A DNA stretch of 64,000 nucleotides from Bacteroidales bacterium (GTDB lineage Bacteria > Bacteroidota > Bacteroidia > Bacteroidales > VadinHA17). Numbering within the stretch: position 1 is the stretch's first letter; the number at the start of each line of letters is the position of its first letter. The position numbers and the translations under genes were made by a program. This document shows positions 5,556 to 29,962 of this stretch, in pieces. A model generated the notes under the pieces. That model searched no databases, was not told the DNA's origin, and saw only the letters and a program-made list of their open reading frames with translations. The DNA is taken from contig JADKBK010000005.1 of assembly GCA_016715075.1 (NCBI GenBank), forward strand, positions 20,541-84,540, read 5' to 3'.

Positions 5556-8246
5556 ATGAAGAAGATAATAATCACATTAACATTTTCTCTTTTAATTCTT
5601 AATACTTCACATTCCCAGGTAGTAAACGGGGTTTTGAAATGCAAGGATGAGACATTTGGTCTTTTAAAAGAGATCTCAGGATCAGTATGTTCAAAGGGAG
5701 AGATCTTATTATCTATAACAACCCACCAGGATCTTGGCTGGGTAGATGAAGTGGAAAAGTGCATTATTCTGAGAGATACCCTGTGGCTTACACCATATCT
5801 TAAAAGACTTAAGGAAGATCCAGGATTTAAGATGGATATTGAGCAGACATCAATAATTATCGAATACCTGAACCGTCACCCCGATAAAAAAGCCGAGATA
5901 CAGAAAGGCCTTGACGAAGGAAGAATATTGATAGGGGCGACATTTACACAGCCTTATGAAGAGCTTTTCAGCGGCGAAGCACTGATAAGACAGCTCTACC
6001 TGGGCAAGAAATGGCTTTCTGACAATTTTAACGGCTACCAATCTGATACTTACTATAATTCTGATGTTCCGGGACGTACCCTGCAGATGTCTCAGATACT
6101 GGCTAAATCAGGTGTGAAAAATATGTTTGTGAGCCGCCATGAAAAAGGAGTTTATAACTGGTTCAGTCCCGACAACTCATTTGTTACAATGTTCTCATCA
6201 GGGCACTATATTGATTTTTTCAATATCCTCGGACTGGAGAGCGAAGAGGGCATTGCCCGGATGGCAAAAGAGGTTTCGTTCTGGGGCAGCTATTATGATA
6301 CTGATTCTAAAGAAGTAATAATTCCGGCTCTCCTGAATTATGAGTTTATATGGGATCAGAAACCTGTTAAGAACTGTGATCCTTTCATCAGCAGGTGGAA
6401 CAGCATATCATATATTGAAAATCAAAAAGGAGAGAAGATAAAAGTTTCACTTCCTCCCTTCAGATATGGTAATCTGAATACATGTCTGAATACTATCAGA
6501 GATAATTCAAAAAAGATCAGGGATATTTCAGGAGAGCGTCCGGCTGTGTGGTTATACATACATGGGCCATCTCATCATTTCGCTATTTCAGCAAGCAGGA
6601 AAGCAGACATACTCCTTCCTGATGCTGAGAAGTTCGCTGCTATAAACTGTTTGCTTGAGGGCAGTTTCAGGCATTATGATGAGGAAAAATTCAGGGAAGC
6701 CTGGGAAGCAAAGATCTATCCCGATCATGGATGGGGAGGTAAGGGAGGAGAGATAACCGACAGGCTTTTCCTCAGCAAATTTGTCAAGTCGTGTGAAGAT
6801 GCATCCTTCCTGCTGGACAATGCTCTTCAGAGAATTGCTTCGAGGATTGAATTTAAGAAGACCGGTATTCCAGTTGTTGTTTTTAATGGTCTGAACTGGA
6901 AGAGAAATGATCCGGTTAGCTTGATCCTGACATTCAAAAAAGGAGAAGCATTTGGATTAAACCTGTTTGATGCCCTAAGTAAACCCGTAATGAGCCAGCT
7001 GAGTGGGAAGGAGTTTTTTGATGATGGATCATTAAAATCATGTAATGTAACCTTTATAGCTTCAGACATTCCCTCAGTTGGGTACAGCACTTTTTATGCC
7101 GAACCATTGAAAAAAGCAGAGATCAATAAAGCATTATCTTTCAGTCATGATTTTGAAAATCAATTCTTTGCAATACAATTTGGAAAGGGCGGGATTGAAA
7201 AGCTCTTCGACAAACAACTCGGGAAAGAGATTATTGATGCATCAAAGTTCAGGCTGGGTGAGGTCTTCACTATGCAATCTGTAGGCAACGGAGCCGGTGA
7301 ATTTTCTGATGTTCAGCAGCCATCGATGGAGGGTTATGACAAGACAGGGAATTATCTCACACCCTGGGAAAAAATTGCTGATGGTCCTGTTTATTCATCT
7401 TTCAGGTACCGCCAGCCGGTCCGCTATGCTGTAGTTGAAGAGACAGTGATCATTTATAACCAGATAAAAAGAATTGACTTTGAGATAGATATTAAAAACT
7501 GGCAGGGAATTCTTTACAGGGAATTCAGGGCAGCCTTTCCACTGAATATGAGTTCCCCGGAAATTGCATATGAAGTCCCAATGGGTGTTGTGGAAGTAGG
7601 GAAGGACGAGCTGAAAGGTCCGGCCGGAAATAATTATTCTACTGATTGCAGGCTAATTCACCCAAGGACTATGGTTGACTGGGTGAATGCTTCAGGCGAA
7701 GGCTTTGGTGCAACAATAAGTTCAAGCGTCATTGCATTTGATTATCTGGATCCTACAACCAATCCGACTTCAAAAACTCTGATTCAGCCTATCCTTTTTG
7801 CATCAAGGAAAAGCTGCCACTGGGAGGGGAATGATTATATTCAGCTTGGAGACCATCATTTTTCATTCTCCCTGTATATTCAGGAACCAGGATGGAGAAA
7901 CGGATCCCATTCCGGTAAGCAGGGACAAAACATGCTCTATACAGTTCTTGATCCTTTGCGGTCTCAAGACAGAAAACTTCCTGAAAAACAAAGCTTTATA
8001 ACAACTGAAGGCGATCAGTTGCTACTCACCGCCTTTAAGAAAAGCGGTGATGACAACAGCCTTATAATCCGCCTGGCTGAAATGAATGGTAGCAGTCAGA
8101 AGATAGGACTCCACCTGTTTACTCCTTTTCAGAATCTTAAAAAAACCAATATAATTGAAGAGGACGAAAAGGATACCGGACAGAAAGGAATGAACTATAG
8201 TCTTGATATTGGCAAAAACTCAATTGAAACATATAAGTTAAAATAA
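5556..8246 (+). CDS. GH38 alpha-mannosidase (secreted), paralogue of 2624..5296
   Basis: Signal peptide MKKIIITLTFSLLILNTSHSQ. Motifs TTHQDLGWVDE and YNSDVPGRTLQMSQIL are present, plus the same conserved blocks as the neighbouring GH38. Confidence 0.85.
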   Translation: MKKIIITLTFSLLILNTSHSQVVNGVLKCKDETFGLLKEISGSVCSKGEILLSITTHQDLGWVDEVEKCIILRDTLWLTPYLKRLKEDPGFKMDIEQTSIIIEYLNRHPDKKAEIQKGLDEGRILIGATFTQPYEELFSGEALIRQLYLGKKWLSDNFNGYQSDTYYNSDVPGRTLQMSQILAKSGVKNMFVSRHEKGVYNWFSPDNSFVTMFSSGHYIDFFNILGLESEEGIARMAKEVSFWGSYYDTDSKEVIIPALLNYEFIWDQKPVKNCDPFISRWNSISYIENQKGEKIKVSLPPFRYGNLNTCLNTIRDNSKKIRDISGERPAVWLYIHGPSHHFAISASRKADILLPDAEKFAAINCLLEGSFRHYDEEKFREAWEAKIYPDHGWGGKGGEITDRLFLSKFVKSCEDASFLLDNALQRIASRIEFKKTGIPVVVFNGLNWKRNDPVSLILTFKKGEAFGLNLFDALSKPVMSQLSGKEFFDDGSLKSCNVTFIASDIPSVGYSTFYAEPLKKAEINKALSFSHDFENQFFAIQFGKGGIEKLFDKQLGKEIIDASKFRLGEVFTMQSVGNGAGEFSDVQQPSMEGYDKTGNYLTPWEKIADGPVYSSFRYRQPVRYAVVEETVIIYNQIKRIDFEIDIKNWQGILYREFRAAFPLNMSSPEIAYEVPMGVVEVGKDELKGPAGNNYSTDCRLIHPRTMVDWVNASGEGFGATISSSVIAFDYLDPTTNPTSKTLIQPILFASRKSCHWEGNDYIQLGDHHFSFSLYIQEPGWRNGSHSGKQGQNMLYTVLDPLRSQDRKLPEKQSFITTEGDQLLLTAFKKSGDDNSLIIRLAEMNGSSQKIGLHLFTPFQNLKKTNIIEEDEKDTGQKGMNYSLDIGKNSIETYKLK

Positions 8247-8334: not shown

Positions 8335-8374
8335 AGCGTATTTAAATGTAAAACAAAATAGTATAAAGCACAAC

Positions 8375-9640
8375 ATGAGTTCACTTAATAATGAATTAAA
8401 ACAGTACCACGGTTATTTCAGTAAAGAACTACATGACGACATACTTCCTTACTGGATGAAATACGGAGTTGAAAAAAACGGACATGGATTTTACGGAGCT
8501 GTTGATCTGAACGGGAATCCGGTGCTTACTGCTAATAAAACAAGTGTCCTGAATGCAAGGATCTTATGGACATTTTCTGCTGCAGCCATGCTGGAAGGAA
8601 ATGGAGAGTATGCCACTGTTGCAGACAAAGCATATAAAGTAGTTACTGAAGGTGTTGAAGATAAGGTGTTTGGCGGTTATTACATGGAACTGTCATCAGA
8701 TAATAAACTGGCGAACGATATTAAGCATACTTATGCCCAGGCTTTTGTAATATATTCACTCTGCAAATATTATGAGTTCCGACCGCTTGATTCTGTCATG
8801 AAGAAGATCAGGGCATTTTTTGCCCTGCTTGAGGAGAAGGCTAAAGATCCTGCGAATGCAGGTTACAGGGAATCATTTACCCGCGACTGGAAAATTTATG
8901 GTGAAAACAGGATGGCGGACAATAATGAGCCAAAATCAATGAATACACATCTGCATGTTCTGGAAGCCTGGGCAGCTCTCTATAAAGTCTGGAAGGACCC
9001 GCTTGTTGAAAAAAGACTCACTGAAATGATGAATCTGTTTCTTGACAGGATAATTCGTAAGTCAGGTCACTTTGGGATCTTCTTCGATGAAGGTTTCAAT
9101 GAGGCTGCTTCCTCAAAGGGAATATGTTCATTCGGACATGATATTGAAGGTTCATGGTTATTGTGGGAAGCTGCGGAGATATTGGGCAATAAGGAGATAA
9201 TTGAAAAGATGAAGCCTGTGGCTGTAAAAATGGTTGATAATATTGAGAGGGTGGCAGTTGACAAGGACGGCGGTCTTTTTCTGGAGTCAACCCGTTTCGG
9301 AAGCCATGTTAAGACAAATAAGCACTGGTGGCAACAGGCAGAGACGCTTGTAGGTTTTATGAACGCCTTTGAGCTGGCCGGTAATTTAAAGTACTGGAAT
9401 ACTGTAAAGCAGAGTTGGAGTTTTATTGATACCTGCCTCATTGATCACGAAAGAGGTGAATGGTTTACGAAGCTGAACCGTCTCGGTGTTCCATTTCTTA
9501 CAGAACCGGAGGATGATCCGTCACCATACTACAGGAATGACTGGAAAATTGATCCCTGGAAATGTCCATATCACAACGGCAGGGCAATGATGGAGATGAT
9601 GAAGAGAATTGATTTAATGTTGAAAAATCTTCAATTATGA
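8375..9640 (+). CDS. AGE-family epimerase/isomerase (N-acylglucosamine 2-epimerase / cellobiose 2-epimerase / mannose isomerase family)
   Basis: Blocks ILPYWMKYGVEKNGHGFYG, NARILWTFSAA, HDIEGSWLLWEA and YHNGRAMMEM are typical of the (alpha/alpha)6 AGE fold. The stop overlaps the next start (ATGA at 9637-9640). Confidence 0.8.
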   Translation: MSSLNNELKQYHGYFSKELHDDILPYWMKYGVEKNGHGFYGAVDLNGNPVLTANKTSVLNARILWTFSAAAMLEGNGEYATVADKAYKVVTEGVEDKVFGGYYMELSSDNKLANDIKHTYAQAFVIYSLCKYYEFRPLDSVMKKIRAFFALLEEKAKDPANAGYRESFTRDWKIYGENRMADNNEPKSMNTHLHVLEAWAALYKVWKDPLVEKRLTEMMNLFLDRIIRKSGHFGIFFDEGFNEAASSKGICSFGHDIEGSWLLWEAAEILGNKEIIEKMKPVAVKMVDNIERVAVDKDGGLFLESTRFGSHVKTNKHWWQQAETLVGFMNAFELAGNLKYWNTVKQSWSFIDTCLIDHERGEWFTKLNRLGVPFLTEPEDDPSPYYRNDWKIDPWKCPYHNGRAMMEMMKRIDLMLKNLQL

Positions 9641-10539
9641 CATCAGGGGAACGTGTTCTGACTGCTTTAAGAGGCGGTACCCCCGACAGGGTTCCGGTTT
9701 GGGAGTATCTGTTCAGTCTGAAGCTGATGAAGGAGGTGATGGGTTATACCACAGAACTTTATGATGGCACAACTCAGACAAAAATGGCCGCCAGAATGGG
9801 GCTCGATGTTATCTGGGCGCCTATAAACGGTTTTTGTGGCATCGAAGATGTCCCGCACGCTCTGAATGAGTTATATCTTGATGAATGGGGTGTTACATAC
9901 CAGAAGAATGGCTGGCCTATAATTGCTCAGATCAGCACTGCAGTAAAGACAAGGGAAGACTGGCTTCAGTACAAAATACCAGAGGTGAATACTCCGGGAA
10001 GGCTTAAGATCCTGAAGGATGTGATTAAGGCAAACGATTCAGATCTGGCCGTTGCAGCCGGCCTGTTGGGTCCGTTTACAATGATGTCATGGTATCTCAT
10101 GGATTTTGAGACCCTGTCTATGGCAATATTTATGGATCCTGATCTGGTACACGAAATGACAGATGCTTTTGTAACATGGGCATTGGAAGCTGCAGCGCTC
10201 GCATATCAGACCGGTGGTGTTGATGCATTTCATATCTCTGATGACTGGGGAGGCACAGGCGGTTTACTGATCTCACCCGACCATTTCAGGGAGTTTTTTC
10301 TTAAGCCTTTTGAAAGACTTGTATCGGGACTTAAATCTTATGGTGTGCCGGTAATTATGCACAATGACGGCAATTTATGGGAGATACTTGATGATCTGGT
10401 CGGTACAGGTATTGATGCTTACCATCCTGTGGAAAGGGCGGCTACAATGGATCTTGTCACTGTAAAGCAAAAGTATAGTGGGAGGATCTGCCCGATTGGA
10501 AACGTGAATGCACCTTGCACCTTGCACCTTGAACCTTGA
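9637..10539 (+). CDS. URO-D/MtaA-family protein, paralogue 1, C-terminally truncated (possible pseudogene)
   Basis: N-terminus GERVLTALRGGTPDRVPVW and core ISDDWGGTGGLLISPDHFREF fit the uroporphyrinogen decarboxylase-like fold. It aligns with 13896..14918 up to PIGNVN. The last 11 codons then read into the heptamer array, so about 50 C-terminal residues are missing. It has HND where the intact paralogue has HIC. Confidence 0.6.
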   Translation: MTSGERVLTALRGGTPDRVPVWEYLFSLKLMKEVMGYTTELYDGTTQTKMAARMGLDVIWAPINGFCGIEDVPHALNELYLDEWGVTYQKNGWPIIAQISTAVKTREDWLQYKIPEVNTPGRLKILKDVIKANDSDLAVAAGLLGPFTMMSWYLMDFETLSMAIFMDPDLVHEMTDAFVTWALEAAALAYQTGGVDAFHISDDWGGTGGLLISPDHFREFFLKPFERLVSGLKSYGVPVIMHNDGNLWEILDDLVGTGIDAYHPVERAATMDLVTVKQKYSGRICPIGNVNAPCTLHLEP

Positions 10540-10586
10540 ACCTTGAACCTTGAACCTTGAACCTTGAACCCTAACCCCTAACCCCC
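10510..10586. repeat. Heptamer tandem array (3x GCACCTT, 5x GAACCTT, 3 degenerate AACCCYN units)
   Basis: Read directly; period 7. It overlaps the 3-prime end of the truncated URO-D ORF and ends 8 nt before the MFS start codon. Confidence 0.9.
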
Positions 10587-10594
10587 GATCCCTC

Positions 10595-11947
10595 ATGAAC
10601 AAAGTCCTTATACAATGTACAATTGCTTCCGCCCTTGGCGGGTTGTTGTTTGGCTACGATACCGTGATCATTAACGGTGCAATGCTCGATCTGGTAAAGC
10701 ATTTTAACCTGACACCAGCTATCCAGGGCTGGACGGTCAGTTCGGCGCTTGTTGGCTGCATACTTGGAACAATACTGATGGGCAAGCCGGGTGATATATT
10801 TGGAGCTCAGAGATTATTGCAGCTGCTTGCAGTACTGTTTCTTATTTCTGCAGTTGGATGTGGTCTGGCTCCTACTATCAGTGTTTTCATTCTTTTCAGG
10901 TTTATCGGCGGTCTGGCCATAGGAGGTGCATCCGTCATCTGTCCTGTTTATATTTCGGAAATATCTCCGCCGAAACACAGGGGATTGCTTGCTTCAACAT
11001 TTCAGCTCGCAATAGTATTTGGGATATTGTTATCACTTATATCCAACTACCTGCTTCTCAATATCGGAGAAAATAACTGGCGTTGGATGCTTTTCAGCGG
11101 CGCATTGCCTGCCGTGGCATTTTTTGTTATGCTTTTCTTTATCAGGAAAAGTCCGCGCTGGCTGGTGAAAAAAGGCAGGATAGAAGAGGCAAGAAAGAAT
11201 ATTGAAGATCTTTCATCTCATGAAATAGATACTGAACAAACCTTATCGGAAATCAGGGAATCAATAAATATTGAGGATGCAGGAAAAAAAATAAACCTAT
11301 TTAAGAAGCCTTACAGGAAGATTGTCTGGCTAGGGATATTTGTTGGTATTTTTAGTCAGCTTACCGGAATAGGAGTTGTCTTCTATTACTCAGCTCAGAT
11401 TTTCAGTATTGCAGGTTTTTCTCCCGATACCTCCATGCTTCAAAGTGTGATACTAGGTTTGACCAACCTGGTCTTCACATTGATCGCAATGCTTCTCATT
11501 GACAGGGTAGGAAGAAAGAAACTGTTAATAATTGGACAGCTTGGAATGGTGGCTGTGCTGGGATTGTTCGGATACGGATTACTCTCGGGAAATATTACAG
11601 GTTACTGGCTTGTTGTACTGCTGGTTGCGTATATAGCTTTCTTCGCTGCTTCAATGGGGGTGGTGATCTGGGTCATGTTATCTGAAATGTTTCCGAATAT
11701 TATCAGGGCCAGGGGTGCTTCACTCGGGTCATTTGCGAACTGGGGAGTAAGTGCCTCTCTAAACTTCCTCTTTCCGCAGGTAGTCGGATTATTCGGAACA
11801 ACACTGGCTCAGCAGCAGATGGGCATGAGCTATGCTTTCCTGTTTCTCGCCGGGATGACACTCTTAGGATTCTTCTTCCTGAAGAACAAGATTATCGAAA
11901 CCAAAGGGAAATCACTGGAACAGATTGAAAAAGAGGTTCTTTGTTAA
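10595..11947 (+). CDS. MFS sugar porter family transporter
   Basis: GGLLFGYDTVIINGA, RKSPRWLVKKGR (the PESPRWL-like sugar porter signature), IDRVGRKKLL, and about 12 hydrophobic segments. Confidence 0.85.
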   Translation: MNKVLIQCTIASALGGLLFGYDTVIINGAMLDLVKHFNLTPAIQGWTVSSALVGCILGTILMGKPGDIFGAQRLLQLLAVLFLISAVGCGLAPTISVFILFRFIGGLAIGGASVICPVYISEISPPKHRGLLASTFQLAIVFGILLSLISNYLLLNIGENNWRWMLFSGALPAVAFFVMLFFIRKSPRWLVKKGRIEEARKNIEDLSSHEIDTEQTLSEIRESINIEDAGKKINLFKKPYRKIVWLGIFVGIFSQLTGIGVVFYYSAQIFSIAGFSPDTSMLQSVILGLTNLVFTLIAMLLIDRVGRKKLLIIGQLGMVAVLGLFGYGLLSGNITGYWLVVLLVAYIAFFAASMGVVIWVMLSEMFPNIIRARGASLGSFANWGVSASLNFLFPQVVGLFGTTLAQQQMGMSYAFLFLAGMTLLGFFFLKNKIIETKGKSLEQIEKEVLC

Positions 11948-11978
11948 TGCTAAATGAATAAATGCTAAATGCTTAATA
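11944..11978. repeat. Left arm of the four-helix-bundle cassette: 5 boxes T(T/A)AATG
   Basis: Boxes at 11944, 11951, 11959, 11966 and 11973, spaced 7-8 nt. They approximate the reverse complement (TTAATGG) of the CCATTAA array on the other side of the gene. Confidence 0.6.
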
Positions 11979-12051
11979 GAATATTTTATATGTTTTTAAG
12001 GTGAAGTATTAAATACTAATTATCTAATATTATTTATTTAATTATTTTGGT

Positions 12052-12414
12052 ATGAAAGAGAATATTCTAAAGACAAAATCTTATGCATTTGCATTAAATG
12101 TCATTAAACTTTATCAGAAGCTTTCTTCAGAAAAAAAAGAATTTGTCCTTTCAAAGCAAATACTCAGATCAGGTACTTCCATAGGTGCCAACATTGAGGA
12201 AGCTAATCAGGCTGAATCTAAACGAGATTTTATACATAAGCTTGGTATTGCACAAAAGGAGGCTAATGAGACACATTACTGGATTCGATTATTGACAGAT
12301 AGTAATTATATCGTTCAAAGTGTTTCCATAATCTTAAAGGATGATTGTGAGGAATTAATCAAATTGATAACATCATCCATTAAGACCGCAAAAAACAACC
12401 TTGATAATGCTTAA
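12052..12414 (+). CDS. Four-helix-bundle protein (23S rRNA intervening-sequence protein family)
   Basis: 120 aa. SYAFALNVIKLYQKL...ILRSGTSIGANIEEA...SKRDFIHKLGIAQKEANETHYWIRLL is the classic signature of this family. Confidence 0.85.
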   Translation: MKENILKTKSYAFALNVIKLYQKLSSEKKEFVLSKQILRSGTSIGANIEEANQAESKRDFIHKLGIAQKEANETHYWIRLLTDSNYIVQSVSIILKDDCEELIKLITSSIKTAKNNLDNA

Positions 12415-12431
12415 TGAAATAGTGCTGAATT

Positions 12432-12634
12432 CATTAACCATTAACCATTAACCATTAACCATTAACCATTAACCATTAACCATTAACCATTAACCATTAA
12501 CCATTAACCATTAACCATTAACCATTAACCATTAACCATTAACCATTAACCATTAACCATTAACCATTAACCATTAACCATTAACCATTAACCATTAACC
12601 ATTAACCATTAACCATTAACCATTAACCATTAAA
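12432..12634. repeat. Perfect tandem array, 29 x CCATTAA
   Basis: 203 nt with period 7. I could see no interruption across four sequence lines. Confidence 0.95.
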
Positions 12635-12645
12635 ACAAATTACCA

Positions 12646-13720
12646 AAACTAACGGGAGAGATACTTACAATTCTGGCAGGAAAAGGTCAGGGACCAGTTT
12701 GGCGGGTAGCTGTCGGATTACTGGGCTAACTCCCTTATCAAAAGAGGCCTTAAACCGAAGAATTTTATTCTTTCGGATGAGTATATCCAGTGGCACCGTG
12801 ACGGGGCCGCTCACCCCTTATACATTTTCTCTGGCTGTGAGGTAAAAGAATGGTATGAAGGTCATCGTCATTACAAAGAAATAGTTACACCCTGCGGTTC
12901 GGTAAGAGAATGCTGGGAATTCATCCCTACATCATTTTCTGATGCCCCTGTTGAACACTTCATGAAATCGGAAGCGGATATACCGATAATGAAGTTTATA
13001 TATGAAAATACAAGTTTTGAACCTGATTATGACCAGGCATATCTCAGAAAGAAACAGGTGGGTGAACAGGGCCTTGTCCTCTGTTACCTTCCTAAAAGCC
13101 CGTTTATGCATCTGCTGGCTCTTGAAGCTGGGGTCATGACAGTTACAATGGCTGCACTTACTGCCCCTGAAGAGTTTAAAGACCTTCTTGATACAATGAA
13201 AAAGGCCTTTGATCAGGCTGCCAGGATTGCTGTTGATAGTCCGGCTGAAGTACTTATGATCCCGGAGAACCTTTCCTCGGAAATGGTAGGCCCTGAACTG
13301 TTTGAGTTGTATATGTCAGGTTATCAGAAGGAATGGACAAAAAAGATCAGTGAAGCCGGTAAATACTCATTTATACATATTGATGGTACACTTGCCGGTT
13401 TACTGAAAGAGGAAGCCGCAGTAGGATTTACAGTACTTGAAGCCCTTACACCTGATCCGGTTGGAGATATGAAGTGGGAAGATCTTGAGTCATTTACCGG
13501 TGATTCGAAAAGTATCCTCTGGGGAGGCATCCCGGGTTCTTATTTTACTGATTGTGTAAGTGATGATGAATTTGACAGACATGTTAAATACCTGCTGGAG
13601 ATCATGGTCAGCAAACCCCGCTTTGTGCTTGGTGTTGCCGACCAGGTGCCTCCCGATGGATTGGAGCGCCGTGTAAAACGTGTTTCAGAACTTGTAAATA
13701 AATATGGATTTTATCATTAA
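12646..13720 (+). pseudogene. URO-D/MtaA-family protein, paralogue 2, start codon missing and frameshifted near 12715
   Basis: Frame 1 (12634-12729) reads NKLPKLTGEILTILAGKGQGPVWRVAVG with no ATG/GTG/TTG and begins directly after the heptamer array. Homology continues in frame 2 (DYWANSLIKRGL...) into the ORF-track ORF 12962..13720. Removing one G of GG 12715-12716 joins the frames. IHIDG and GVADQVPP replace the HxC...C motif. Confidence 0.55.
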
Positions 13721-13730
13721 TTTTAATTGC

Positions 13731-13810
13731 CACAAAGGCACAAAGGCATAAAGGCATAAAGGCACAAAGGCGCAAAGGCACAAAGGCACAAAGGCATAAA
13801 GGCATAAAAC
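13731..13810. repeat. Octamer tandem array, 10 x CA(C/T)AAAGG
   Basis: Read directly. It is followed by three approximate inverse boxes (TTGATG / CTTGATG / CCTTGATGG) at 13829-13854. Confidence 0.9.
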
Positions 13811-13895
13811 AACACAAGGGTTGTATTATTTGATGGGACTTGATGCCTTGATGGCTGAATAAATAAGAAAGTAATTATTTAAAAAAGAATGAATT

Positions 13896-14918
13896 ATGAA
13901 TGGCTATGAAAGAATAAACGCTGCATTGAAAGGTGAAAAGCCCGATAAGGTGCCGGTTATGCTGCATAATTTTATGCTGGCGGCAAGGGAACATAATATA
14001 ACAATGTCACAGTATCGGGATAATCCGAAACTGATAGCAGAATGTTTTATTGCTTCAATTGAGAAGTATCAATATGATGGTATACTTATCGATATCGATA
14101 CTGTTACACTGGCCGGTGCCGTGGGGGTGCCTGTTGATTTTCCGGTTGATGATCCGGCAAGGTCGCATGAAGGAAATCTGTTAAACCTGGAGGATGTATT
14201 CAAACTCAAACCCGCTAACATTGAAAACTACAGGTATGTCCAGAACTGTCTGGAAGCAGTGCGTATTCTTAAAGAGTATTATAAGGATGAGATATTTATA
14301 AGAGGCAACTGTGACCAGGCTCCTTTTTCACTTGCAAGTATGATGCGGGGAGCACAGACATGGATGCTCGATCTGATGATGGGTACGGGAGAGCAGATCA
14401 ACACTCTGCTTGAATATTGCCTTGATGCAGGTACTCAGTTTATAAAACTTATGTGCCAGACCGGTTGTGATATGGTCTCAAATGGCGATAGTCCTGCCGG
14501 CCCGGAGATGATATCTTCTGACATGTATGTGAAATATGCACTTCCATTTGAAAAAAGACTCGCTGACGCAGCCCACAATGAAGGGGTTAAATATGCCCTC
14601 CATATCTGCGGCAATACAGATGTCATTCTTGAGCATATGCTTACAACAGGAGCTGAAGCAATTGATCTGGATTATAAAACAGATATAAGAAAAATTTATG
14701 ATGCTTTTCATGATAAGACAACTCTTATCGGAACAATTGATCCCAGCGGAGTGCTGGCACTCGGAACACCCGATGATGTAAGAGAAAAAGCTTTGGAATT
14801 GCTGAACCTATACCGCAATTCAAACCGGTTTATCATTAATGCAGGATGTGCCATTCCTCCGACAACACCTTCCGTGAACATCAAAACTTTGATAGAAACT
14901 GCACGTAATTTCAGATAG
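13896..14918 (+). CDS. URO-D/MtaA-family protein, paralogue 3, intact, with MtaA-type HxC...C zinc motif
   Basis: 340 aa. YERINAALKGEKPDKVPVM at the N-terminus. LHICGNT and NAGCAIPPTTP match the His-x-Cys...Cys zinc ligand pattern of methylcobamide:CoM methyltransferase-like members of the URO-D fold. Confidence 0.75.
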   Translation: MNGYERINAALKGEKPDKVPVMLHNFMLAAREHNITMSQYRDNPKLIAECFIASIEKYQYDGILIDIDTVTLAGAVGVPVDFPVDDPARSHEGNLLNLEDVFKLKPANIENYRYVQNCLEAVRILKEYYKDEIFIRGNCDQAPFSLASMMRGAQTWMLDLMMGTGEQINTLLEYCLDAGTQFIKLMCQTGCDMVSNGDSPAGPEMISSDMYVKYALPFEKRLADAAHNEGVKYALHICGNTDVILEHMLTTGAEAIDLDYKTDIRKIYDAFHDKTTLIGTIDPSGVLALGTPDDVREKALELLNLYRNSNRFIINAGCAIPPTTPSVNIKTLIETARNFR

Positions 14919-15081: not shown

Positions 15082-17490
15082 ATGAACAGGTTGTTTGGAT
15101 CAACTATCAGATTATTCGTCTTCGCAGCATTTTTAGTTTTTTGCTGTTTCAGTGCTGTTAGTAAGGCCGCTGATCCGTCGAATGTAACCGCTTCCTCATC
15201 AGGATGGACAATAACGGCTGATACTAAAGCCGGCACTCTTCTCCTTTCCCATGATAGTCTTGGGGTGGTTCTGAAGGATATAACTCTTAATGTAAGAAAC
15301 AGGAACTATCTCCGACCATTGAAAGAATGGACTGTCGTAAAACAGGTTGATAACAGGCTTGAGCTTAGGACTGAGCATCCGGCTTCATCCTGGACCTTTG
15401 AATTGAATCATGACAATATAATTTTCTCTGCCACAACAGCCGATCTTTTTCTTTCCGCTAAAGCTCCTGCATCTTCTGACAGGGTAGTGGCACGGCTGAT
15501 TGATCCCGCTGGAGTACCTGTTAACTGGAGAGGAACTGAAGAGATCACTGTCTCCTGGAATGGGCAAGACACTCAGAATCCATCATTTCTTCCTTCCAGA
15601 AACCCTGAAGTGATGACCTTTGCCCTCGGGCAGGTATCCTCCTCAAACCTTCACAGCCTGTTTGACCGGAAAATGGATATTGCACTCAATTTCTCAGACC
15701 AGACTACGATGAGCCGTAATATACAGGATCATGATCTGCTTGATCTGGTAATTCCTGTTCCGGGCAGCACCATATTGCGATTGATCCCTGATTACTATAC
15801 AAAGAATCTGGGCCTTCCGTATTATAGCAGGTTTGATGACTCCGTATTTCCTTCTGCTCCTCTGATATGGGGCAGTTGGACGGCGTACTATTATGAAGCC
15901 CGTGAATCAGATATTATCGCAAACACTGACTGGCTTGCGCAAAATCTTAAGCCTTACGGATTTCAGTACGTCCAGCTTGATGACGGGTATGACAGAGGTA
16001 AGGATGAGGGACACTACTGGATCGAAAACTGGAATAAGACACTTTTTCCCCATGGGCCGGGATGGCTTGCGAATTATATAAAATCTAAGGGTTTGCACCC
16101 TGGACTATGGCTGGTTCCGAACTCTTATGCCGGTTTCATAGGTACCCATCCTGAATGGTACCTGTACAACAAATCGGGAAATGTTATCCAGGATTACAAG
16201 ACGCCGGCACTTGATCATACGAATCCTGCAGTTCAGGATTGGCTTGACAAACTATTCACCACACTGAAAGGGTGGGGATTCGAATACTATAAGTTCGACG
16301 GCGAATTCTCGCTTCCCAAATATGTTCCGGATCTGGATACCAGCAGACTTTTTGACAACTCCATCGATCCGCTAACAGCCTACCGTGAACGGTTGAAACT
16401 GATCCGAAAGGTTATTGGACCTGAAACATTTGTTGAGGGTTGTGTTGCCGGCACACCGCTGAACGGGATAGGCTATTTTAATTCCTGCTTCAACGGGGAT
16501 GATATGTATAACAGCTGGAAGGGATCATATGCAGTCTTCAGTTCCATCAATGCAAATGCTTTCCTGAATCATATGGTAATGTATGTCATGCCGGGGGAGG
16601 GAATTGATGTTTCCCCTCTGATGAGCGTGGAAGAATCCAGACAGAAGATGGCGCCAAGGTCAATCCAGGTAGCTCTTACAAGGGAAGATCCATTCACCGG
16701 ATTTGGAACTACTCTTCCTGAGGCACGAACTCTGGTGTCAATTATCTCCCTGACAGGGGTGGCATATCCTCTGACCAGCATTATGCCACGCCTCCCTGAG
16801 GAGAGAGTGTCCCTACTGAAGATGACAATGCCGACTCTGCCGATTATTCCTGTTGACCTTTTCAGCAGAGGCTCAGATATTACCTGGGATAAATTTAAAT
16901 TCACAACTCCCGAGAGTTACATCCATAATTATCCCGAAATTATCGATCTGAAGGTAAATGCAATTTCAGGAATTTATGATGTTGCAGCTTTCACCAACTG
17001 GAGAGGAGAAAAAATTTCAAAGTCACTATCCCTTCCGGACAAGCTTGGGCTGGAAAGTGGAAGATCATATATTATTTTTGATTTTTGGAATCAGAAACTG
17101 ATGGGAATATCAAATGAGATGATTGATGTGGATATTGAACCGCATGATACCCGGGTTCTTCTGATCCATAAGATCCAGGGACAACCGCAGCTGATAGGCA
17201 ACTCCAGGCATATTTCAGGTGTTCATTCCATCATAGATCTGAAATGGAACGCTGCCGAAAAAATGCTAAGAGGGGAATCAGAGACTATCAGCGGAGAGCT
17301 CTATTCTCTTTTTGTCTATGTGCCTGACGGAATGTACCTGGCAAATGTAAAAGCGGTCACAAAAGATAACCGGGAAGTACCGGCGACATCTGTTGTGGCA
17401 GGCAATTTATTAAAGATCAGTCTTGAAGGGCAGGCAGATCCGGTGCAATGGCAGGTTCAGTTCTCTAATGGTTCCAGAAACGGACGATAA
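15082..17490 (+). CDS. Clan GH-D (GH36-like) alpha-galactosidase-like glycoside hydrolase, secreted
   Basis: Signal peptide. YVQLDDGYDRGKDEGHYWIENWNKTLFPHGPGWLANYIKSKGLHPGLWLVP and YYKFDGEF resemble the GH36/GH27 catalytic (beta/alpha)8 core. The family assignment is approximate. Confidence 0.55.
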   Translation: MNRLFGSTIRLFVFAAFLVFCCFSAVSKAADPSNVTASSSGWTITADTKAGTLLLSHDSLGVVLKDITLNVRNRNYLRPLKEWTVVKQVDNRLELRTEHPASSWTFELNHDNIIFSATTADLFLSAKAPASSDRVVARLIDPAGVPVNWRGTEEITVSWNGQDTQNPSFLPSRNPEVMTFALGQVSSSNLHSLFDRKMDIALNFSDQTTMSRNIQDHDLLDLVIPVPGSTILRLIPDYYTKNLGLPYYSRFDDSVFPSAPLIWGSWTAYYYEARESDIIANTDWLAQNLKPYGFQYVQLDDGYDRGKDEGHYWIENWNKTLFPHGPGWLANYIKSKGLHPGLWLVPNSYAGFIGTHPEWYLYNKSGNVIQDYKTPALDHTNPAVQDWLDKLFTTLKGWGFEYYKFDGEFSLPKYVPDLDTSRLFDNSIDPLTAYRERLKLIRKVIGPETFVEGCVAGTPLNGIGYFNSCFNGDDMYNSWKGSYAVFSSINANAFLNHMVMYVMPGEGIDVSPLMSVEESRQKMAPRSIQVALTREDPFTGFGTTLPEARTLVSIISLTGVAYPLTSIMPRLPEERVSLLKMTMPTLPIIPVDLFSRGSDITWDKFKFTTPESYIHNYPEIIDLKVNAISGIYDVAAFTNWRGEKISKSLSLPDKLGLESGRSYIIFDFWNQKLMGISNEMIDVDIEPHDTRVLLIHKIQGQPQLIGNSRHISGVHSIIDLKWNAAEKMLRGESETISGELYSLFVYVPDGMYLANVKAVTKDNREVPATSVVAGNLLKISLEGQADPVQWQVQFSNGSRNGR

Positions 17491-17535: not shown

Positions 17536-20511
17536 ATGAGACTCCTTTTACCCCTAATCATCTCCGTTTTTTACCTAAGCACTATCTCGGGTAATCAGAT
17601 TGAAATTCCATATTCTGTTCCTGCAAAACCATGGCCTGAATCTTTCGGAAACCATAGGGCAGTTCTTCATATCTCAAATCCATCAGAGGTTGTTACACTG
17701 GATATTTTGTGGCGCCGGCATGATCCTGACCCGGATACCAGACGCTTTCTGATCATTAATGCATCAAGCGGCGACACAATTTCAAATATTTTCCGGTATA
17801 AGGTAAATAATGAAGAGTGCCGGATAGCATTCGGTCCTGTGAAAATGGCCGGAACTTACTATTTCTATTATCTGCCTTATGACATACAGGAGGAATGGGG
17901 CTTTTATGGGAAGGATTATCTGAAACGGGAGAGTGATCCTTCAGGAGAATGGCTGCTGAAGAATCATGTTAACAGACCTTCAAGATCAAAGAGTTTTGTT
18001 GCTGCCAGTATTACTGATTTTCAATCCCGCTTCGCATTCGATTCATTTTACCCTATGGAGGTAATAGCTCTTTTATCTGAAAAATCAGTGCTTCTTGAAA
18101 AATACACCAATGACTGGCTTGTATTCCCGGAGGACAGGTCATATCCGATCCGCATGCGCGATGAGATACCACTGAGATGGATACGTCAGGGACCATCAGA
18201 ACAGTTTACCGGTGAAGCACTGAAGAATGAATACTATGCTTTTCAGATCGGGGTATATGCATCAAAGGCCGGTCTTCAAAATCTGAAAGTTGAGTTTACA
18301 TCCCTGCAGGGCGCAAGTGTCAAAATCCCTGCTTCCTCGCTTACCTGTTTCAATACAGGAGGAATAGGACCATATGGTAAACCTTTTGAGAAGCGGGTCG
18401 ATGTAGGCCTCGGAATGGTTCAGCCCCTCTGGATAGGAATTGATATACCAGAGGCTATTCCTGCCGGCACCTATACGGGATCAGTCATAATTAAACCTGA
18501 AAATGCCAGGCCGCAGACTATAAAAATTTCACTTAAAATTGCGGATAAGATCATTGCAGATCGTGGTGATAGTGAACCATGGCGTCATTCACGGTTACGA
18601 TGGCTAAACTCTACTCTGGGTATTGATGATAAGACTGTTAAACCATATAAACCTATTGAATTTCTGGGTAATAACACCTATCGTCTTACTGAAAAAATTC
18701 TAAGAATGGACGATGGAGGAATGCCCGGGTCAATAAATGTATCCGGGACAGAACTTCTTTCAGATCCGATCTCATTCGTTGTTGAATCAGGTAAGGGCTT
18801 TGAGAAATTTACTTTGCCGGAAGATATATCCCTGATTAAAAACAAACCGGGGGCAATTGGAGGATCGTGGAGATGCCATTCTGACGGTTTTGAACTGACC
18901 GGAACAGGAATGGTAGAAGCTGATGGGTACATAAATTATAAAATAAAAATCAGAGCCCTCAGGGACATTTCCCTGAAGGATGTCAGGCTGGAGATTCCAT
19001 TTGCCGGGAACGTTGCACAGTATATAATAGGCATGGGGTTACCGGGAACTGTTGTGCCTGAGGCACATCAGGCACCATGGAGTGGCCCGTTTGACAGTTT
19101 CTGGATGGGTAATACTTATGCAGGTCTATGGTGCGAACTGAGGGGCGGAAGCTATAATGGTCCGCTGCTTAACCTGTACAATCCTGCCCCTCCGGCTTCA
19201 TGGTATAATAATGATAACGGCGGCTTCAGGATAACAAAAAACCAGTCGGGAACAAATGCAGTTGTTTACAGTGGAGCCAGGGAATTAAAATCAGGTGAAA
19301 AACTTGATTTTGAATGGTCAATGCTTATAACACCAGTTAAAAAAATCAATACAGGGAGCCAGTTCACAGACCGGTATTATCATAATGGAGGCAACCCAAT
19401 GCCATCCGATGCCGACCTGTCATGCGGTGTGAAGATAGTCAACCTCCATCATGCCAATAACTATAATCCGCATATCAATTACCCTTTTATTGCAACAGAC
19501 TCAATGAGATGGTTTGTTGATAAGATGCATTCAAAAGGACAGAAGGTAAAGATCTATTACACAATCCGCGAACTCACTAATTACACTACTGAGATCTGGG
19601 CACTTCGCAGCCTTGGCGATGAAATACTCGGTAATGGTGATGGCGGAGGATATACATGGCTCAGGGAACACTTTATTTCCGGTTACAGGCCTCAGTGGTA
19701 TCAGCACTTTCCGGATAAAAGTCCTGATGCATCTATTGTCAATGCACCTGGGGATTCCAGGTGGTATAACTATTATATCGAAGGACTGGCCTGGCTTGTC
19801 AGAAATGTTGATATAGATGGTTTGTACCTCGATGATGTTACTTATGACAGAAGAACTGTCAAGCGGATCAGAAAAGTACTTGACAATGAAAAGCCGGGCT
19901 GTATACTCGAGCTGCATTCCAATACCGGTTTTTCGAAAGGGCCTGCAAATCAGTATGCTGAATATTTCCCGTATATTGATAAGATATGGTTTGGAGAGAG
20001 CTTTTTATATGATAAAATGTCACCCGGGAACTGGCTTGTCGAAACCTCAGGTATCCCTTTCGGACTGATGGGCGATATGCTTCAGGGTGGAGGTAACAGA
20101 TGGAGAGGGATGGTTTATGGTATGACTGTACGTCATCCCTGGACAACAGAAGGGGTGCTTTGTGATCCTCGTCCTGTGTGGAAAATCTGGGATGAATTTG
20201 GAATTGAGTCTTCTGTAATGAAAGGATACTGGCAGAATGACTGTCCGGTCAAAACAGATCGTCCTGATGTTAAAGCTACTATCTATCTGAAAAATGGAGA
20301 ATCCCTTTTATCAGTGGCCAGCTGGGCTGAAGACCCGGTAAAGTTTTTATTGAAATTCGACTGGAAAGTTCTCGGGATAGATCCCTCGAAAGCTGAGCTG
20401 TACGCTCCTTCTGTTGAGAATTTTCAGGAAGAGAGGAGTTTTAGACCTGACGAAACTATCCCTGTGGAACCAGGAAAGGGCTGGATGATTATTGTGAAGG
20501 AGAAAAAGTAA
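17536..20511 (+). CDS. Large secreted putative glycoside hydrolase (GH123/DUF4091-like), family uncertain
   Basis: 991 aa with a signal peptide. The C-terminal TIM-barrel-like region (NLHHANNYNPHINYPF, KVKIYYTIRELT, DIDGLYLDDVTYDR, LELHSNTGF) reminds me of DUF4091/GH123-type proteins. The ORF is clear, but the family call is weak. Confidence 0.4.
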   Translation: MRLLLPLIISVFYLSTISGNQIEIPYSVPAKPWPESFGNHRAVLHISNPSEVVTLDILWRRHDPDPDTRRFLIINASSGDTISNIFRYKVNNEECRIAFGPVKMAGTYYFYYLPYDIQEEWGFYGKDYLKRESDPSGEWLLKNHVNRPSRSKSFVAASITDFQSRFAFDSFYPMEVIALLSEKSVLLEKYTNDWLVFPEDRSYPIRMRDEIPLRWIRQGPSEQFTGEALKNEYYAFQIGVYASKAGLQNLKVEFTSLQGASVKIPASSLTCFNTGGIGPYGKPFEKRVDVGLGMVQPLWIGIDIPEAIPAGTYTGSVIIKPENARPQTIKISLKIADKIIADRGDSEPWRHSRLRWLNSTLGIDDKTVKPYKPIEFLGNNTYRLTEKILRMDDGGMPGSINVSGTELLSDPISFVVESGKGFEKFTLPEDISLIKNKPGAIGGSWRCHSDGFELTGTGMVEADGYINYKIKIRALRDISLKDVRLEIPFAGNVAQYIIGMGLPGTVVPEAHQAPWSGPFDSFWMGNTYAGLWCELRGGSYNGPLLNLYNPAPPASWYNNDNGGFRITKNQSGTNAVVYSGARELKSGEKLDFEWSMLITPVKKINTGSQFTDRYYHNGGNPMPSDADLSCGVKIVNLHHANNYNPHINYPFIATDSMRWFVDKMHSKGQKVKIYYTIRELTNYTTEIWALRSLGDEILGNGDGGGYTWLREHFISGYRPQWYQHFPDKSPDASIVNAPGDSRWYNYYIEGLAWLVRNVDIDGLYLDDVTYDRRTVKRIRKVLDNEKPGCILELHSNTGFSKGPANQYAEYFPYIDKIWFGESFLYDKMSPGNWLVETSGIPFGLMGDMLQGGGNRWRGMVYGMTVRHPWTTEGVLCDPRPVWKIWDEFGIESSVMKGYWQNDCPVKTDRPDVKATIYLKNGESLLSVASWAEDPVKFLLKFDWKVLGIDPSKAELYAPSVENFQEERSFRPDETIPVEPGKGWMIIVKEKK

Positions 20512-20530
20512 CTGTTTTTTTGCTAAAAAA

Positions 20531-20656: not shown

Positions 20657-21412
20657 ATGTCGAATCACAAGAAAACACTTATGTTGCTGGTTGTAACAGC
20701 TCTCACGTTATCATTCGTATATGCCCAGGAAGGAATGATCTCCTTCGGGAAATCCTCATCCTTAGACAGGGCGCTGTTTAAGACAAAGGAGAAAGAAATA
20801 CCTCTTCTCTGGAAGAATGTTAATACTGCACCTGATACCTGGCATCTTGAAAAAGATCTCCTGGTTTGTTCCGGCCATCCTATCGGAGTAATGCGGTCAG
20901 AGAAGCAGTATGAGAATTTCATCCTTCACATAGAGTGGATGCACATGGAACCGGGCGGTAATTCCGGGACCTTTGTATGGAGCAATGCCACTCCTCCTGA
21001 GGGGGGCAATCTGCCTAATGGAGTTGAGGTTCAGATGCTTGAGCTTGAATGGGTCAGACTTAATACTAAAGACGGAGTTGTTCCACCAATAGCATATGTT
21101 CATGGTGAACTTTTTGGAGTTGGCGGAGTTGAAACGGTACCGGATACCCCCAGAGGCACAAGAAGCAAATCAATTGAGAACCGTTGCAAGGGGAAGGGGG
21201 AATGGAATATTTATGATGTCGTTTGTGTTGACGGTGTGGTGAAGCTTTCAGTGAACGGTAAATTTGTGAACGGAATTGCGAAAGCAACGCAGAAAAAAGG
21301 TTATATATGTCTTGAATCGGAAGGAGCGGAGATACATTTCCGGAATATCAGGATTATTGAATTGCCTTCCGGTGTTATTACCCCTGAACAAATAGCAAAT
21401 GAGTTAAAATGA
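20657..21412 (+). CDS. DUF1080 (3-keto-disaccharide hydrolase-like) domain protein, secreted
   Basis: Signal peptide. [35 protein letters not shown] and [22 protein letters not shown] are typical DUF1080 concanavalin-like blocks. Confidence 0.7.
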
Positions 21413-22539: not shown

Positions 22540-22579
22540 TTTAACTGATCTCTTTATTTATTACAGATTCTGTATCTTT

Positions 22580-22724
22580 CTCTGTGAAACTCTGTGCTCC
22601 CGATAGTCATCGGGACTCTGTGATCTCTGTGTAAGTTCTTAGCTTAATATTACACAGAGAGCACAGAGAATACACGGAGTAACACAGAGATAGCTGCAGT
22701 TGCAGAATCGAATTTCTCAACAGC
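22580..22724. repeat. Composite palindromic element, sister of 5321-5465
   Basis: CTCTGTG at 22580, 22590, 22616, 22625. CACAGAG/CACGGAG at 22653, 22662, 22673, 22683. Nested hairpin cccgat/atcggg at 22599-22614. Tail tagctgcag...atttctcaacagc. Confidence 0.8.
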
Positions 22725-22776
22725 ATCCCGGAGTTCTTTATTTAAATAAACTATTAATATTCAAATATATATAATC

Positions 22777-24828: not shown

Positions 24829-25064
24829 AGAGTAAGAGTTGTTACACGGAAAGTCCTTAGCATTAGTAAGCCCGTCGTTTGTGTTTTAAGACGCGTCTCA
24901 TTCTCATCTTAATAGTATTCATAAAAAACCGATTAGAAGGTATACTCAATCTGATGAGATCAGGGAGACAGTCTTTTTTGCTGGATTCCCGGAAGTCATT
25001 TTATCTGATTATCCTATTTTCCATTGTGGGTTATAGTTTCTGAAACGTCTTTATTCAGATATTA

Positions 25065-29942: not shown

Positions 29943-29962
29943 TACTTTAAATTATTGAAAAT

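Follow-up and report, generated by a model that had tools for sequence, protein, structure and literature searches.

URO-D-family paralogues in a Bacteroidales mannoside-utilisation locus: candidate sugar demethylases with a proposed link to a corrinoid system encoded elsewhere

The 64-kb stretch of Bacteroidales DNA analysed here (the window) carries three genes of the URO-D family (URODA, URODB and URODC) within a string of mannoside-utilisation genes. We propose that they represent three conserved clades of UroD-superfamily methyltransferases, which in anaerobic Bacteroidota would act as substrate-specific 'spokes', distributed over glycan loci, that demethylate imported sugars and feed a central corrinoid hub, and we give this reading a probability of about 0.55. 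It draws on the fold, the conservation of the metal sites, synteny and the corrinoid protein (CP) genes observed beside orthologues; from these we infer the substrate, the direction of transfer and the roles of the individual paralogues. The hub, encoded elsewhere, would comprise a CP, a pterin-binding methyl-corrinoid:THF methyltransferase, MTHFR and a MetH-type reactivation domain.

All three proteins exceed the PF01208 gathering score of 23.9 bits (URODA, 300 aa, 90.9 bits; URODB, longest ATG ORF of 252 aa, 46.2 bits; URODC, 340 aa, 219.5 bits), and a pairwise identity of ~21–23 % makes them distant paralogues. Neither they nor the neighbouring AGE-family enzyme carry a signal peptide. The sequence-only reading of this DNA implied that they are not bona fide HemE proteins, and the HemE model TIGR01464 agrees: URODC scored 92.5 bits, URODA 30.4 bits and URODB gave no match, all so far under the equivalog cut-off of 302.95 bits that a HemE identity is ruled out for each. 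They share the Pfam family and the fold with HemE, but carry metal-site residues where the aligned decarboxylase has Gly and His, and the haem-synthesis context is absent. The best-scoring named relatives are the MtaA/CmuA models, although the NCBIfam membership thresholds are not reached (TIGR01463, cut-off 235.4 bits: URODC 161.4, URODA 60.7, URODB 27.8; for URODC also the MtaA equivalog, 142.5 against 400 bits, and the MtbA equivalog, 142.7 against 600 bits). By sequence, URODC aligns to the MtaA structure 4ay7 with E = 3e-21, metal site included. Structure prediction, which had been proposed with the earlier reading, returned an AF2 model of URODC (pLDDT 84.7) with a TM score of 0.86 to 4ay7, and the AF2 models of URODC and of one URODA orthologue match both UROD and MtaA structures. 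On sequence and predicted structure, the nearest characterised relative of URODC is thus MtaA, the methylcobamide:coenzyme M methyltransferase of Methanosarcina (4ay7/4ay8), with which it shares the (beta/alpha)8 fold and the His-x-Cys...Cys site, and URODC is a candidate corrinoid-dependent methyltransferase. It differs from MtaA in being only ~22 % identical and below the cut-offs given above, and in being a bacterial protein whose gene shares a glycan locus with that of a sugar porter, in a host where the coenzyme M pathway is not expected; it would probably act on the methyl-donor side rather than unload methyl groups to a thiol.

The surrounding genes are listed in Table 1. Top PDB matches of the AGE enzyme are cellobiose 2-epimerases (9l8i and 3wkf, E ~1e-75), while those of the sugar porter are XylE and GlcP (E ~4e-72). 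Genes for an ECF sigma factor, a FecR anti-sigma factor and SusC- and SusD-like proteins follow the glycoside hydrolase genes on the same strand, which identifies the region as a Bacteroidota polysaccharide-utilisation locus (PUL); the window holds the SusC/SusD pair, regulator and CAZymes by which a PUL is recognised.

Table 1. Genes and repeat arrays of the window, by position
Feature	Position	Strand	Evidence
GH38-like α-mannosidase, clipped by the window start, frame open from base 1	1..2493	+	Pfam Glyco_hydro_38C, Alpha-mann_mid
GH38 α-mannosidase with signal peptide (hydrophobic N-terminus)	2624..5296	+	Pfam GH38N, GH38C, GH38C2
GH38 α-mannosidase with signal peptide	5556..8246	+	Pfam, N-terminus
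AGE-family enzyme, cellobiose-2-epimerase-like, cytoplasmic	8375..9640	+	PF07221, E = 1.4e-43
URODA (paralogue 1), His-x-Asp URO-D paralogue, truncated	9637..10539	+	Pfam, relatives, L003 alignment
Heptamer tandem array ACCTTGA x8.4, at the deletion junction; supplies the URODA stop codon	10512..10570	.	
MFS sugar porter, XylE/GlcP-like monosaccharide:H+ symporter	10595..11947	+	PF00083, E = 5e-104
Four-helix-bundle protein (23S_rRNA_IVP / TIGR02436), insertion relative to L003	12052..12414	+	
Perfect heptamer array CATTAAC x28.9	12432..12633	.	
URODB (paralogue 2), His-x-Asp...Asp pseudogene; longest ATG ORF 12962-13720	12650..13720	+	Relatives
Octamer tandem array CACAAAGG x9.8, URODB-URODC spacer	13731..13808	.	
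URODC (paralogue 3), intact MtaA-like URO-D	13896..14918	+	PF01208, 4ay7 match, AF2 model
GH36/melibiase-like secreted glycosidase; downstream neighbour conserved in close relatives	15082..17490	+	Pfam, synteny
GH123-like secreted glycosidase	17536..20511	+	PF19543, E = 0; in 15/81 loci
DUF1080 (3-keto-disaccharide hydrolase family), 376-aa protein without Pfam match, GH5-like enzyme	20657..24189	+	
ECF sigma factor, FecR anti-sigma factor, SusC-like, SusD-like	24274..31636	+	

The earlier description of three URO-D paralogues among mannoside genes holds as far as family membership goes, but URODA and URODB are both inactivated in the window, and the phrase therefore overstates what this locus can do. 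In relatives, which keep the gene order of the window, the intact proteins measure 355 (URODA), 367 (URODB) and 340 aa (URODC). URODA covers only positions 2–295 of the 346-position profile, and its ORF stops within a heptamer array; DNA alignment to the closest relative (locus L003) revealed a ~250-bp deletion that removed the last ~55 residues, taking with the 3′ end the second metal-site motif, STDHS, and the family-invariant residues D326 and H327. URODA is here C-terminally truncated and probably inactive. Of URODB, whose intact counterparts in relatives encode 367–372 aa, the 3′ two-thirds are left: its ATG is lost, it carries indels of 1, 2, 22 and 2 nt, and a TAG stop occurs in frame at 12707-12709, so that, judged by its sequence, it is a pseudogene in this genome. 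URODC is the sole full-length paralogue and the only one that could still work in the window.

Beyond the window, the arrangement is widely shared. Our synteny set comprised 81 URODC loci (80 relatives and the window), drawn from numerous families and including a few other phyla, and it revealed AGE as the most constant partner of URODC (53/81), followed by the porter, which was found in 47/81 and usually lies immediately upstream of URODC or of URODB-URODC, and by GH38 (42–45 of 81). Loci with all three genes intact and in the order of the window occur on metagenome contigs as well as in L003. The co-localisation of URO-D genes with CAZymes remarked on in the sequence-only reading is thus conserved in many genomes.

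Every metal-site motif quoted in that reading is present in the sequence (LHICGNT and AGCAIPP in URODC; MHNDGN, IHIDGT and GVADQVPP in the other two). In URODC, the site is His236-Cys238...Cys318, aligned to the His-x-Cys...Cys zinc motifs of 4ay7, and it is kept in 118/119 close homologues and in 97–102 of 103 representatives of 50 % clusters. The sites of URODA (H/D/D/H, kept in 118/118 family members) and URODB (H/D/D, 10/10) are of the His-x-Asp...Asp type, and the feature typical of MtaA/CmuA is accordingly found in URODC only. UroD-superfamily proteins serve as the substrate-specific methyltransferases (MT-I) of corrinoid systems, some of them with zinc (PMC13222342). Within the superfamily, sites made of His and carboxylates have been assigned to O-demethylating enzymes and His-Cys-Cys sites to enzymes acting on S- or Se-methyl groups (PMC10418091). 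The earlier suggestion that the Asp variants use a different metal or chemistry can therefore be made more specific, as theirs is the reported O-demethylating pattern, and URODA and URODB would fit that type.

By the same analogy, the His-Cys-Cys site of URODC argues against a role in O-demethylation and hence against our reading. URODC might instead act on an S- or Se-methyl compound (5-methylthioribose, methylthioxylose or, as proposed for Mlp, methyl selenide) and share no more than transport or regulation with its glycan context; the selenide activity of ClMlp2 (PMC10418091) and an identity to MtaA near the value reported for Mlps are in keeping with this. We nevertheless consider such a substrate improbable: in the 81-locus survey, the conserved neighbours include no sulfur, selenium or methionine-salvage genes, and the genes that constantly accompany URODC encode an aldose 2-epimerase-like enzyme, a hexose/pentose-type porter and α-mannosidases. 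The type 1 mlp clusters (Mlp1-3; Kountz & Balskus, PMC10418091) likewise combine several MtaA-like paralogues, a CP link and His-Cys-Cys members; however, they occur mostly in Firmicutes, contain CP and Ram/RACE inside the cluster and are associated with sulfur or selenium genes. The window locus, in contrast, has carboxylate-site paralogues (two of three with Asp), a glycan context and neither CP nor RACE, and it falls outside type 1, as it lacks the defining set of Mlp2, Mlp3, CP and RACE.

The 64-kb window is devoid of genes for a corrinoid protein (an absence noted at the outset), an MT-II or an activator, and this, together with the loss of URODA and URODB, also counts against our explanation. 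The methyl-transfer idea was judged weaker on that account; elsewhere, however, a CP gene (B12-binding_2 + B12-binding) adjoins orthologues in loci L012, L017, L023, L032, L036, L061, L084, L166 and L167. L032 and L036 share the order AGE-MFS-URODB-URODC-CP-activation domain. L023 reads URODC-CP-Pterin_bind-MTHFR-activation-URO-D, and in L084 a porter (83 % identical) and URODC (74 %) are followed by AraC and, after it, CP-Pterin_bind-MTHFR; these two are the loci with Pterin_bind and MTHFR beside the orthologue. L061 places URODC with three further URO-D genes, RACo and CP within a rhamnose/fucose-type sugar cluster. On the URODA side, the Prevotella MAG locus L166 has the order URODA-GH38-URO-D-URO-D-CP-activation-MFS, and in L167 the URODA orthologue lies near CP and an activation domain. 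That domain is Met_synt_B12-like (MetH-type) in L023, L032, L036, L166 and L167. The hub itself is a conserved operon that usually stands alone, in which CP is accompanied by PterinMT in 60/80 loci, MTHFR in 48/80 and the activation domain in 30/80. Of 80 URODC loci, just 6–7 have corrinoid genes at a distance of 10 kb or less, and among 80 hub loci just 8 have a URO-D gene that close; the link is thus recurrent, yet not constant.

The absence of corrinoid genes from most loci, the window included, would also be expected if the paralogues were independent of corrinoids, acting as HemE-like decarboxylases, metal-dependent sugar isomerases or direct MetE-like methyltransferases, with the nearby corrinoid genes a coincidence; the URO-D/MetE fold does support cofactor-free and direct-transfer chemistry, and the models match UROD and MetE. 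We regard this as very improbable. The HemE scores (92.5, 30.4 and none against 303) speak against it, as does the position of CP, activation domain, RACo and pterin-binding methyltransferase genes directly adjacent and on the same strand in unrelated lineages and in both the URODC and the URODA clades, where a random 20-kb stretch would hold a CP gene in ~1 % of cases (a rough estimate, inferred rather than computed).

Under the hub-and-spoke explanation, secreted GH38 and other glycosidases would free monosaccharides in the periplasm, and the XylE-like porter would import a methylated hexose, most probably of the manno or gluco configuration. In the cytoplasm, the URO-D metal site may bind the methyl-bearing heteroatom while a Co(I) CP accepts the methyl group, which would then pass to THF, and the AGE enzyme/epimerase would convert the demethylated sugar for glycolysis. 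URODC, tied to the porter and the epimerase, would be the core enzyme, with a putative role on the methyl-donor side acting on the imported sugar. A literature search returned no characterised precedent for Co(I) cleavage of aliphatic (sugar) methyl ethers and no published description of such a system. We suggest tentatively, and at somewhat less than even odds, that anaerobic Bacteroidota and some Planctomycetota, Ignavibacteriota and Spirochaetota possess a hub-and-spoke cobalamin network in which each PUL spoke is specific for a different methylated monosaccharide; the URODC substrate within such a network would be methyl-mannose or methyl-glucose, taken up by its own porter.

The glycans of plants, algae, fungi and bacteria commonly contain O-methylated sugars, among them 4-O-methyl-glucuronic acid, 2-O-methyl-fucose and -xylose, 3-O- and 6-O-methyl-mannose and 6-O-methyl-galactose. 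Our literature search found no description of how their methyl groups are handled anaerobically and a single characterised means of sugar methyl ether removal, the O2-dependent P450 of marine Bacteroidetes. This 6-O-methyl-D-galactose demethylase of porphyran PULs is a functional analogue, likewise PUL-embedded, that strips the methyl ether from a sugar and thereby opens the monosaccharide to catabolism, but it has an unrelated fold, requires O2 and yields formaldehyde (PMC10033563), and the system proposed here would be its anaerobic, methyl-conserving counterpart. If real, the hub-and-spoke network suggested above would provide the first enzyme system for O2-independent demethylation of carbohydrate methyl ethers and a path, not seen before, by which methyl groups of glycans enter C1 metabolism in sediments, peat and guts. 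Demethylation of sugars through a CP would account for the 'uroporphyrinogen decarboxylase' annotations in PULs of the surveyed haem-independent anaerobes, give glycan degradation a cobalamin requirement and tie polysaccharide breakdown to the methyl-THF, and possibly methanethiol, pools of anoxic soils, sediments and guts.

The O-demethylase systems of acetogens and Desulfitobacterium and the chloromethane systems (MT-I OdmB/VdmB/MtvB/CdmB) follow a logic common to L023, L084 and L061, namely a UroD-superfamily MT-I, a ~220-aa CP, a THF-methylating MT-II and a reactivation component (PMC13222342). Their substrates are aryl methyl ethers and methyl halides, and similarity to CdmB, the one solved MT-I, is very weak (E = 0.001). 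The systems also differ in that the MT-I genes considered here are scattered over PULs that encode sugar transporters and glycosidases, RACo is less frequent at the hub than a MetH-type activation domain, and the organisms concerned are fermentative Bacteroidota, not acetogens.

The paralogues could also divide the work in the manner of MtaB/MtaC/MtaA of methanogens, with URODA and URODB as the sugar O-demethylases (MT-I) and URODC as an MT-II that transfers the methyl group from CP to a thiol or sulfide, giving for example methanethiol or methionine. We consider this rather unlikely, although several observations point to it. MtaA, the closest characterised relative of URODC, is itself a methyl-corrinoid:thiol methyltransferase, and His-Cys-Cys is the reported S/Se type (PMC10418091). 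In self-contained operons that lack a pterin-binding MT-II, a carboxylate-type URO-D is joined by another URO-D type as well as by CP and an activation domain, the other URO-D being of the His-Cys-Cys type in L032/L036 and L166 and of the HCN-/FCC-type in L167, and 19 of the 44 URODC loci with full flanks carry an extra URO-D with a non-His-Cys-Cys site. In the other direction, one would expect the hub to include an enzyme for general unloading, but 72/80 hub loci have no URO-D gene nearby. URODC is moreover the lone URO-D in 25/44 full-flank loci, still attached to the porter and AGE, and in L023 and L084 it adjoins a hub that already holds a pterin-binding MT-II.

The URO-D genes lie in a single long gene string that belongs to a Bacteroidota polysaccharide-utilisation locus (PUL) (table). 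Pfam matches bear out the setting described in the sequence-only reading, i.e. URO-D genes among GH38 mannosidases, an AGE-family enzyme and a sugar porter, and every motif cited there was found in the window. Both complete GH38s and the GH36-like and GH123-like proteins carry signal peptides, while the AGE and URO-D proteins carry none. The AGE protein is nearest to cellobiose 2-epimerases (E value about 1e-75) and the porter to XylE and GlcP.

Features of the window and gene arrangements in related loci (CP, corrinoid protein)
Locus	Feature	Position	Strand	Remark
Window	GH38-like gene		+	cut by window start
Window	GH38 alpha-mannosidase	2624-5296	+	
Window	GH38 alpha-mannosidase	5556-8246	+	
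Window	AGE-family enzyme	8375-9640	+	
Window	URODA (paralogue 1)	9637-10539	+	
Window	Sugar_tr MFS porter	10595-11947	+	
Window	four-helix-bundle gene	12052-12414	+	PF05635 / TIGR02436, '23S rRNA intervening sequence protein'
Window	URODB (paralogue 2)	12962-13720	+	ATG ORF
Window	URODC (paralogue 3)	13896-14918	+	
Window	GH36-like, GH123-like, DUF1080, unannotated protein without Pfam match, GH5-like		+	follow URODC
Window	ECF sigma factor, FecR, SusC, SusD		+	follow GH5-like gene
Window	FAD-dependent oxidoreductase (PF12831), then 389-aa multi-[4Fe-4S] protein	34854-37366		downstream of SusC/SusD
Window	DUF4838 / GH20b-like gene	37360-39577	-	overlapping ORFs 37360-38790, 38738-39577
Window	7-8-nt-unit tandem arrays	10512-10570, 12432-12633, 13731-13808, 53385-53476		intergenic spacers of the operon
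L003	tandem arrays	7150-7296, 9879-9954		same spacers as window, different arrays
L032, L036	AGE-MFS-URODB-URODC-CP-MetH-type activation domain			Lentimicrobiaceae
L023	URODC-CP-Pterin_bind methyltransferase-MTHFR-activation domain-another URO-D			peat Bacteroidales
L061	MFS-URODC, three more URO-D, RACo, CP	7750-20310		Prolixibacteraceae
L084	GH172-URO-D-GH20-MFS-URODC, AraC, CP-Pterin_bind-MTHFR			from CP-centred look-up
L166	URODA-GH38-URO-D-URO-D-CP-activation domain-MFS			Prevotella MAG, URODA orthologue
L167	URODA-URO-D-CP-activation-URO-D-CobW-MFS			URODA orthologue
L167	CobW/COG0523-type metallochaperone gene	14946-15875		inside URO-D/CP operon
L083	copy of central corrinoid operon	13805-20669		adjoins CE15 and GH115 genes

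All three proteins are Pfam URO-D members, with pairwise identities of only 21-23 %. None reaches the HemE equivalog cut-off, and a role in haem synthesis was rejected on these scores and on gene context. URODC scores best against the MtaA and CmuA models, yet below their cut-offs; its more distant relatives, from Blautia and Pirellulaceae, carry only generic product names. Aligned with MtaA of Methanosarcina mazei (4ay7; E value 3e-21), its LHICGN and GCAI motifs fall on the zinc-site motifs, and superposition of its AlphaFold model (pLDDT 84.7) on that structure gives a TM score of 0.86. The model of a URODA orthologue is likewise a URO-D barrel (pLDDT 90.8, TM 0.70-0.75). The clade-invariant sites are H236/C238/C318 in URODC, H242/D244/D326/H327 in URODA and H254/D256/D342 in URODB. 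In the UroD superfamily, His-Cys-Cys has been associated with S- or Se-methyl enzymes and replacement of Cys by carboxylates with O-methyl enzymes (Kountz and Balskus, PMC10418091). The predicted URODA and URODB sites thus fit the O-type, while the role of URODC is less certain because its His-Cys-Cys is the reported S/Se pattern.

The three paralogues recognised in the sequence-only reading are all present; however, URODA is truncated, URODB carries lesions and only URODC is full length. URODA aligns to the Pfam profile, 346 positions long, over positions 2-295 only, and its ORF stops within an (ACCTTGA)n array; the 120 homologues that match it best have about 351-366 aa. Alignment with the closest relative locus, L003 (a MAG), revealed a deletion of ~250 bp in which the last 165 nt of the gene are lost, including the segment holding the family-invariant STDHS motif, along with part of the spacer. 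In URODB, whose relatives are 367-372 aa, the start codon is changed from ATG to AAA, indels of 1, 2, 22 and 2 nt are present, and an in-frame TAG (12707-12709) precedes a frame open from 12710; directly upstream lie the inserted four-helix-bundle gene and a perfect array of 29 CATTAAC copies. A single gene split in two does not account for URODA and URODB, as each has a His-x-Asp-Gly motif and intact orthologues (355 and 367 aa, respectively) in different clades.

The lesions might conceivably be assembly or sequencing artefacts at the repeat arrays: no sequence record contains the URODA or URODC product exactly as encoded here, no independent assembly of the strain was found, and a 99 % identical contig (P0001) begins just 160 nt upstream of URODC and so does not reach the lesions. 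Several independent changes at the URODB 5′ end argue instead for real decay, and from the alignments this end looks genuinely decayed. Two of the window's tandem arrays flank the URODA and URODB lesions. In six other loci (L014, L019, L024, L070, L075 and L076), a member of the four-helix-bundle family again directly precedes URODC, suggesting that it is a small insert, either mobile or regulatory. Damage in the window extends beyond URODA and URODB: the DUF4838 / GH20b-like gene is also split, by a frameshift or sequencing error.

Elsewhere the arrangement is intact. In L003 and in metagenome contigs, all three URO-D genes are undamaged and ordered as in the window (GH38 ×3, AGE, URODA, MFS, URODB, URODC, GH36-like, GH123-like, DUF1080). 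Scanning one genome per GTDB species for URODC returned 273 loci with relatives, of which the best 80 were analysed; these belong to Bacteroidales, Prolixibacteraceae, Rikenellaceae and Lentimicrobiaceae, with a few in Ignavibacteriales, Planctomycetota, Spirochaetota and Rhodothermales. Counting neighbours no more than 10 kb from URODC in these 80 loci plus the window, we found orthologues of AGE in 53/81, the porter in 47/81, GH38 in 42-45/81, URODB and GH123-like genes in 15/81 each and URODA in 5-6/81, the commonest order being AGE, MFS, (optionally URODB), URODC. The CAZyme co-localisation, whose absence from other genomes was named in the sequence-only reading as a ground for refutation, is therefore conserved, and the association is real.

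A B12-binding homology probe and a DxHxxG...SxL...GG pattern detected no corrinoid protein in the 64-kb window, in agreement with the sequence-only reading. The same searches returned matches in six URODC loci, which Pfam identified as B12-binding_2 plus B12-binding proteins of about 222 aa. Corrinoid genes also lie beside URODA orthologues (table), and in L084 the porter and URODC are 83 % and 74 % identical to those of the window. No cobalamin riboswitch was found in the window, L023, L032, L084 or L166. The 222-aa protein is highly conserved and abundant in Bacteroidales metagenomes; in 80 metagenome loci centred on it, it is followed by a pterin-binding methyltransferase (60), MTHFR (48) and an activation domain (30). 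Only 8 of these 80 loci have a URO-D gene within 10 kb; conversely, of the best 80 of the 273 URODC loci, only 6-7 have corrinoid genes that close to URODC. The most economical interpretation is that a single central methyl-corrinoid-to-THF module is fed by URO-D methyltransferases dispersed in glycan loci, paralleling acetogens, which have many substrate-side methyltransferase (MT-I) genes for different substrates (PMC13222342).

All functional claims made here are predictions from comparative genomics. In the proposed pathway, periplasmic glycosidases would set free a methylated hexose, which the porter would take up; the metal site of a URO-D enzyme would present the methyl-bearing heteroatom, Co(I) of the corrinoid protein would take the methyl group and pass it to THF, and the freed sugar would be converted by AGE. 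The identity of the sugar is a guess from the GH38 and epimerase context. URODC could instead be an MtaA-like unloading enzyme or act on a methylthio-sugar. We prefer to place URODC on the methyl-donor side, acting on the imported sugar. First, in 25 of the 44 loci whose flanks are complete it has no other URO-D gene beside it, yet remains coupled to the porter and AGE. Second, the corrinoid operons adjoining URODC in L023 and L084 already contain a THF-methylating methyltransferase (MT-II). Third, the Cys2His zinc sites of alcohol dehydrogenase stabilise aliphatic alkoxides and the Cys-rich zinc site of MtaB activates methanol.

No account of UroD-superfamily, MtaA or corrinoid enzymes that act on methylated sugars or are encoded within PULs turned up in full-text literature searches. 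The nearest known systems are demethylases of aryl ethers and methyl halides (PMC13222342), the Mlp clusters, for which a role in methyl-sulfur or methyl-selenium metabolism has been proposed (PMC10418091), and the oxygen-dependent P450 route for 6-O-methyl-galactose (PMC10033563). The parts list is already familiar; the novelty lies in the setting, in the architecture and in the probable class of substrate.

Several loci point to variations. L061, which encodes RhaT, a rhamnose mutarotase (RhaM), an aldo-keto reductase, an amidohydrolase, a zinc dehydrogenase and a PhyH dioxygenase, resembles a version of the same scheme for deoxy-hexoses (methyl-rhamnose or methyl-fucose). The CobW gene of L167 is consistent with a need for metal insertion into these methyltransferases. 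In L083, the neighbouring CE15 glucuronoyl esterase and GH115 alpha-glucuronidase both act on 4-O-methyl-glucuronoxylan, hinting at another methylated-sugar substrate. Finally, seven Prolixibacteraceae loci (L044, L047, L049, L050, L052, L054 and L056) encode, some 4-8 kb downstream of URODC, a PFL-like glycyl-radical enzyme (718 aa) and its radical-SAM activase alongside GH78-like and NPCBM proteins, a set that may provide a second anaerobic sugar-processing step.
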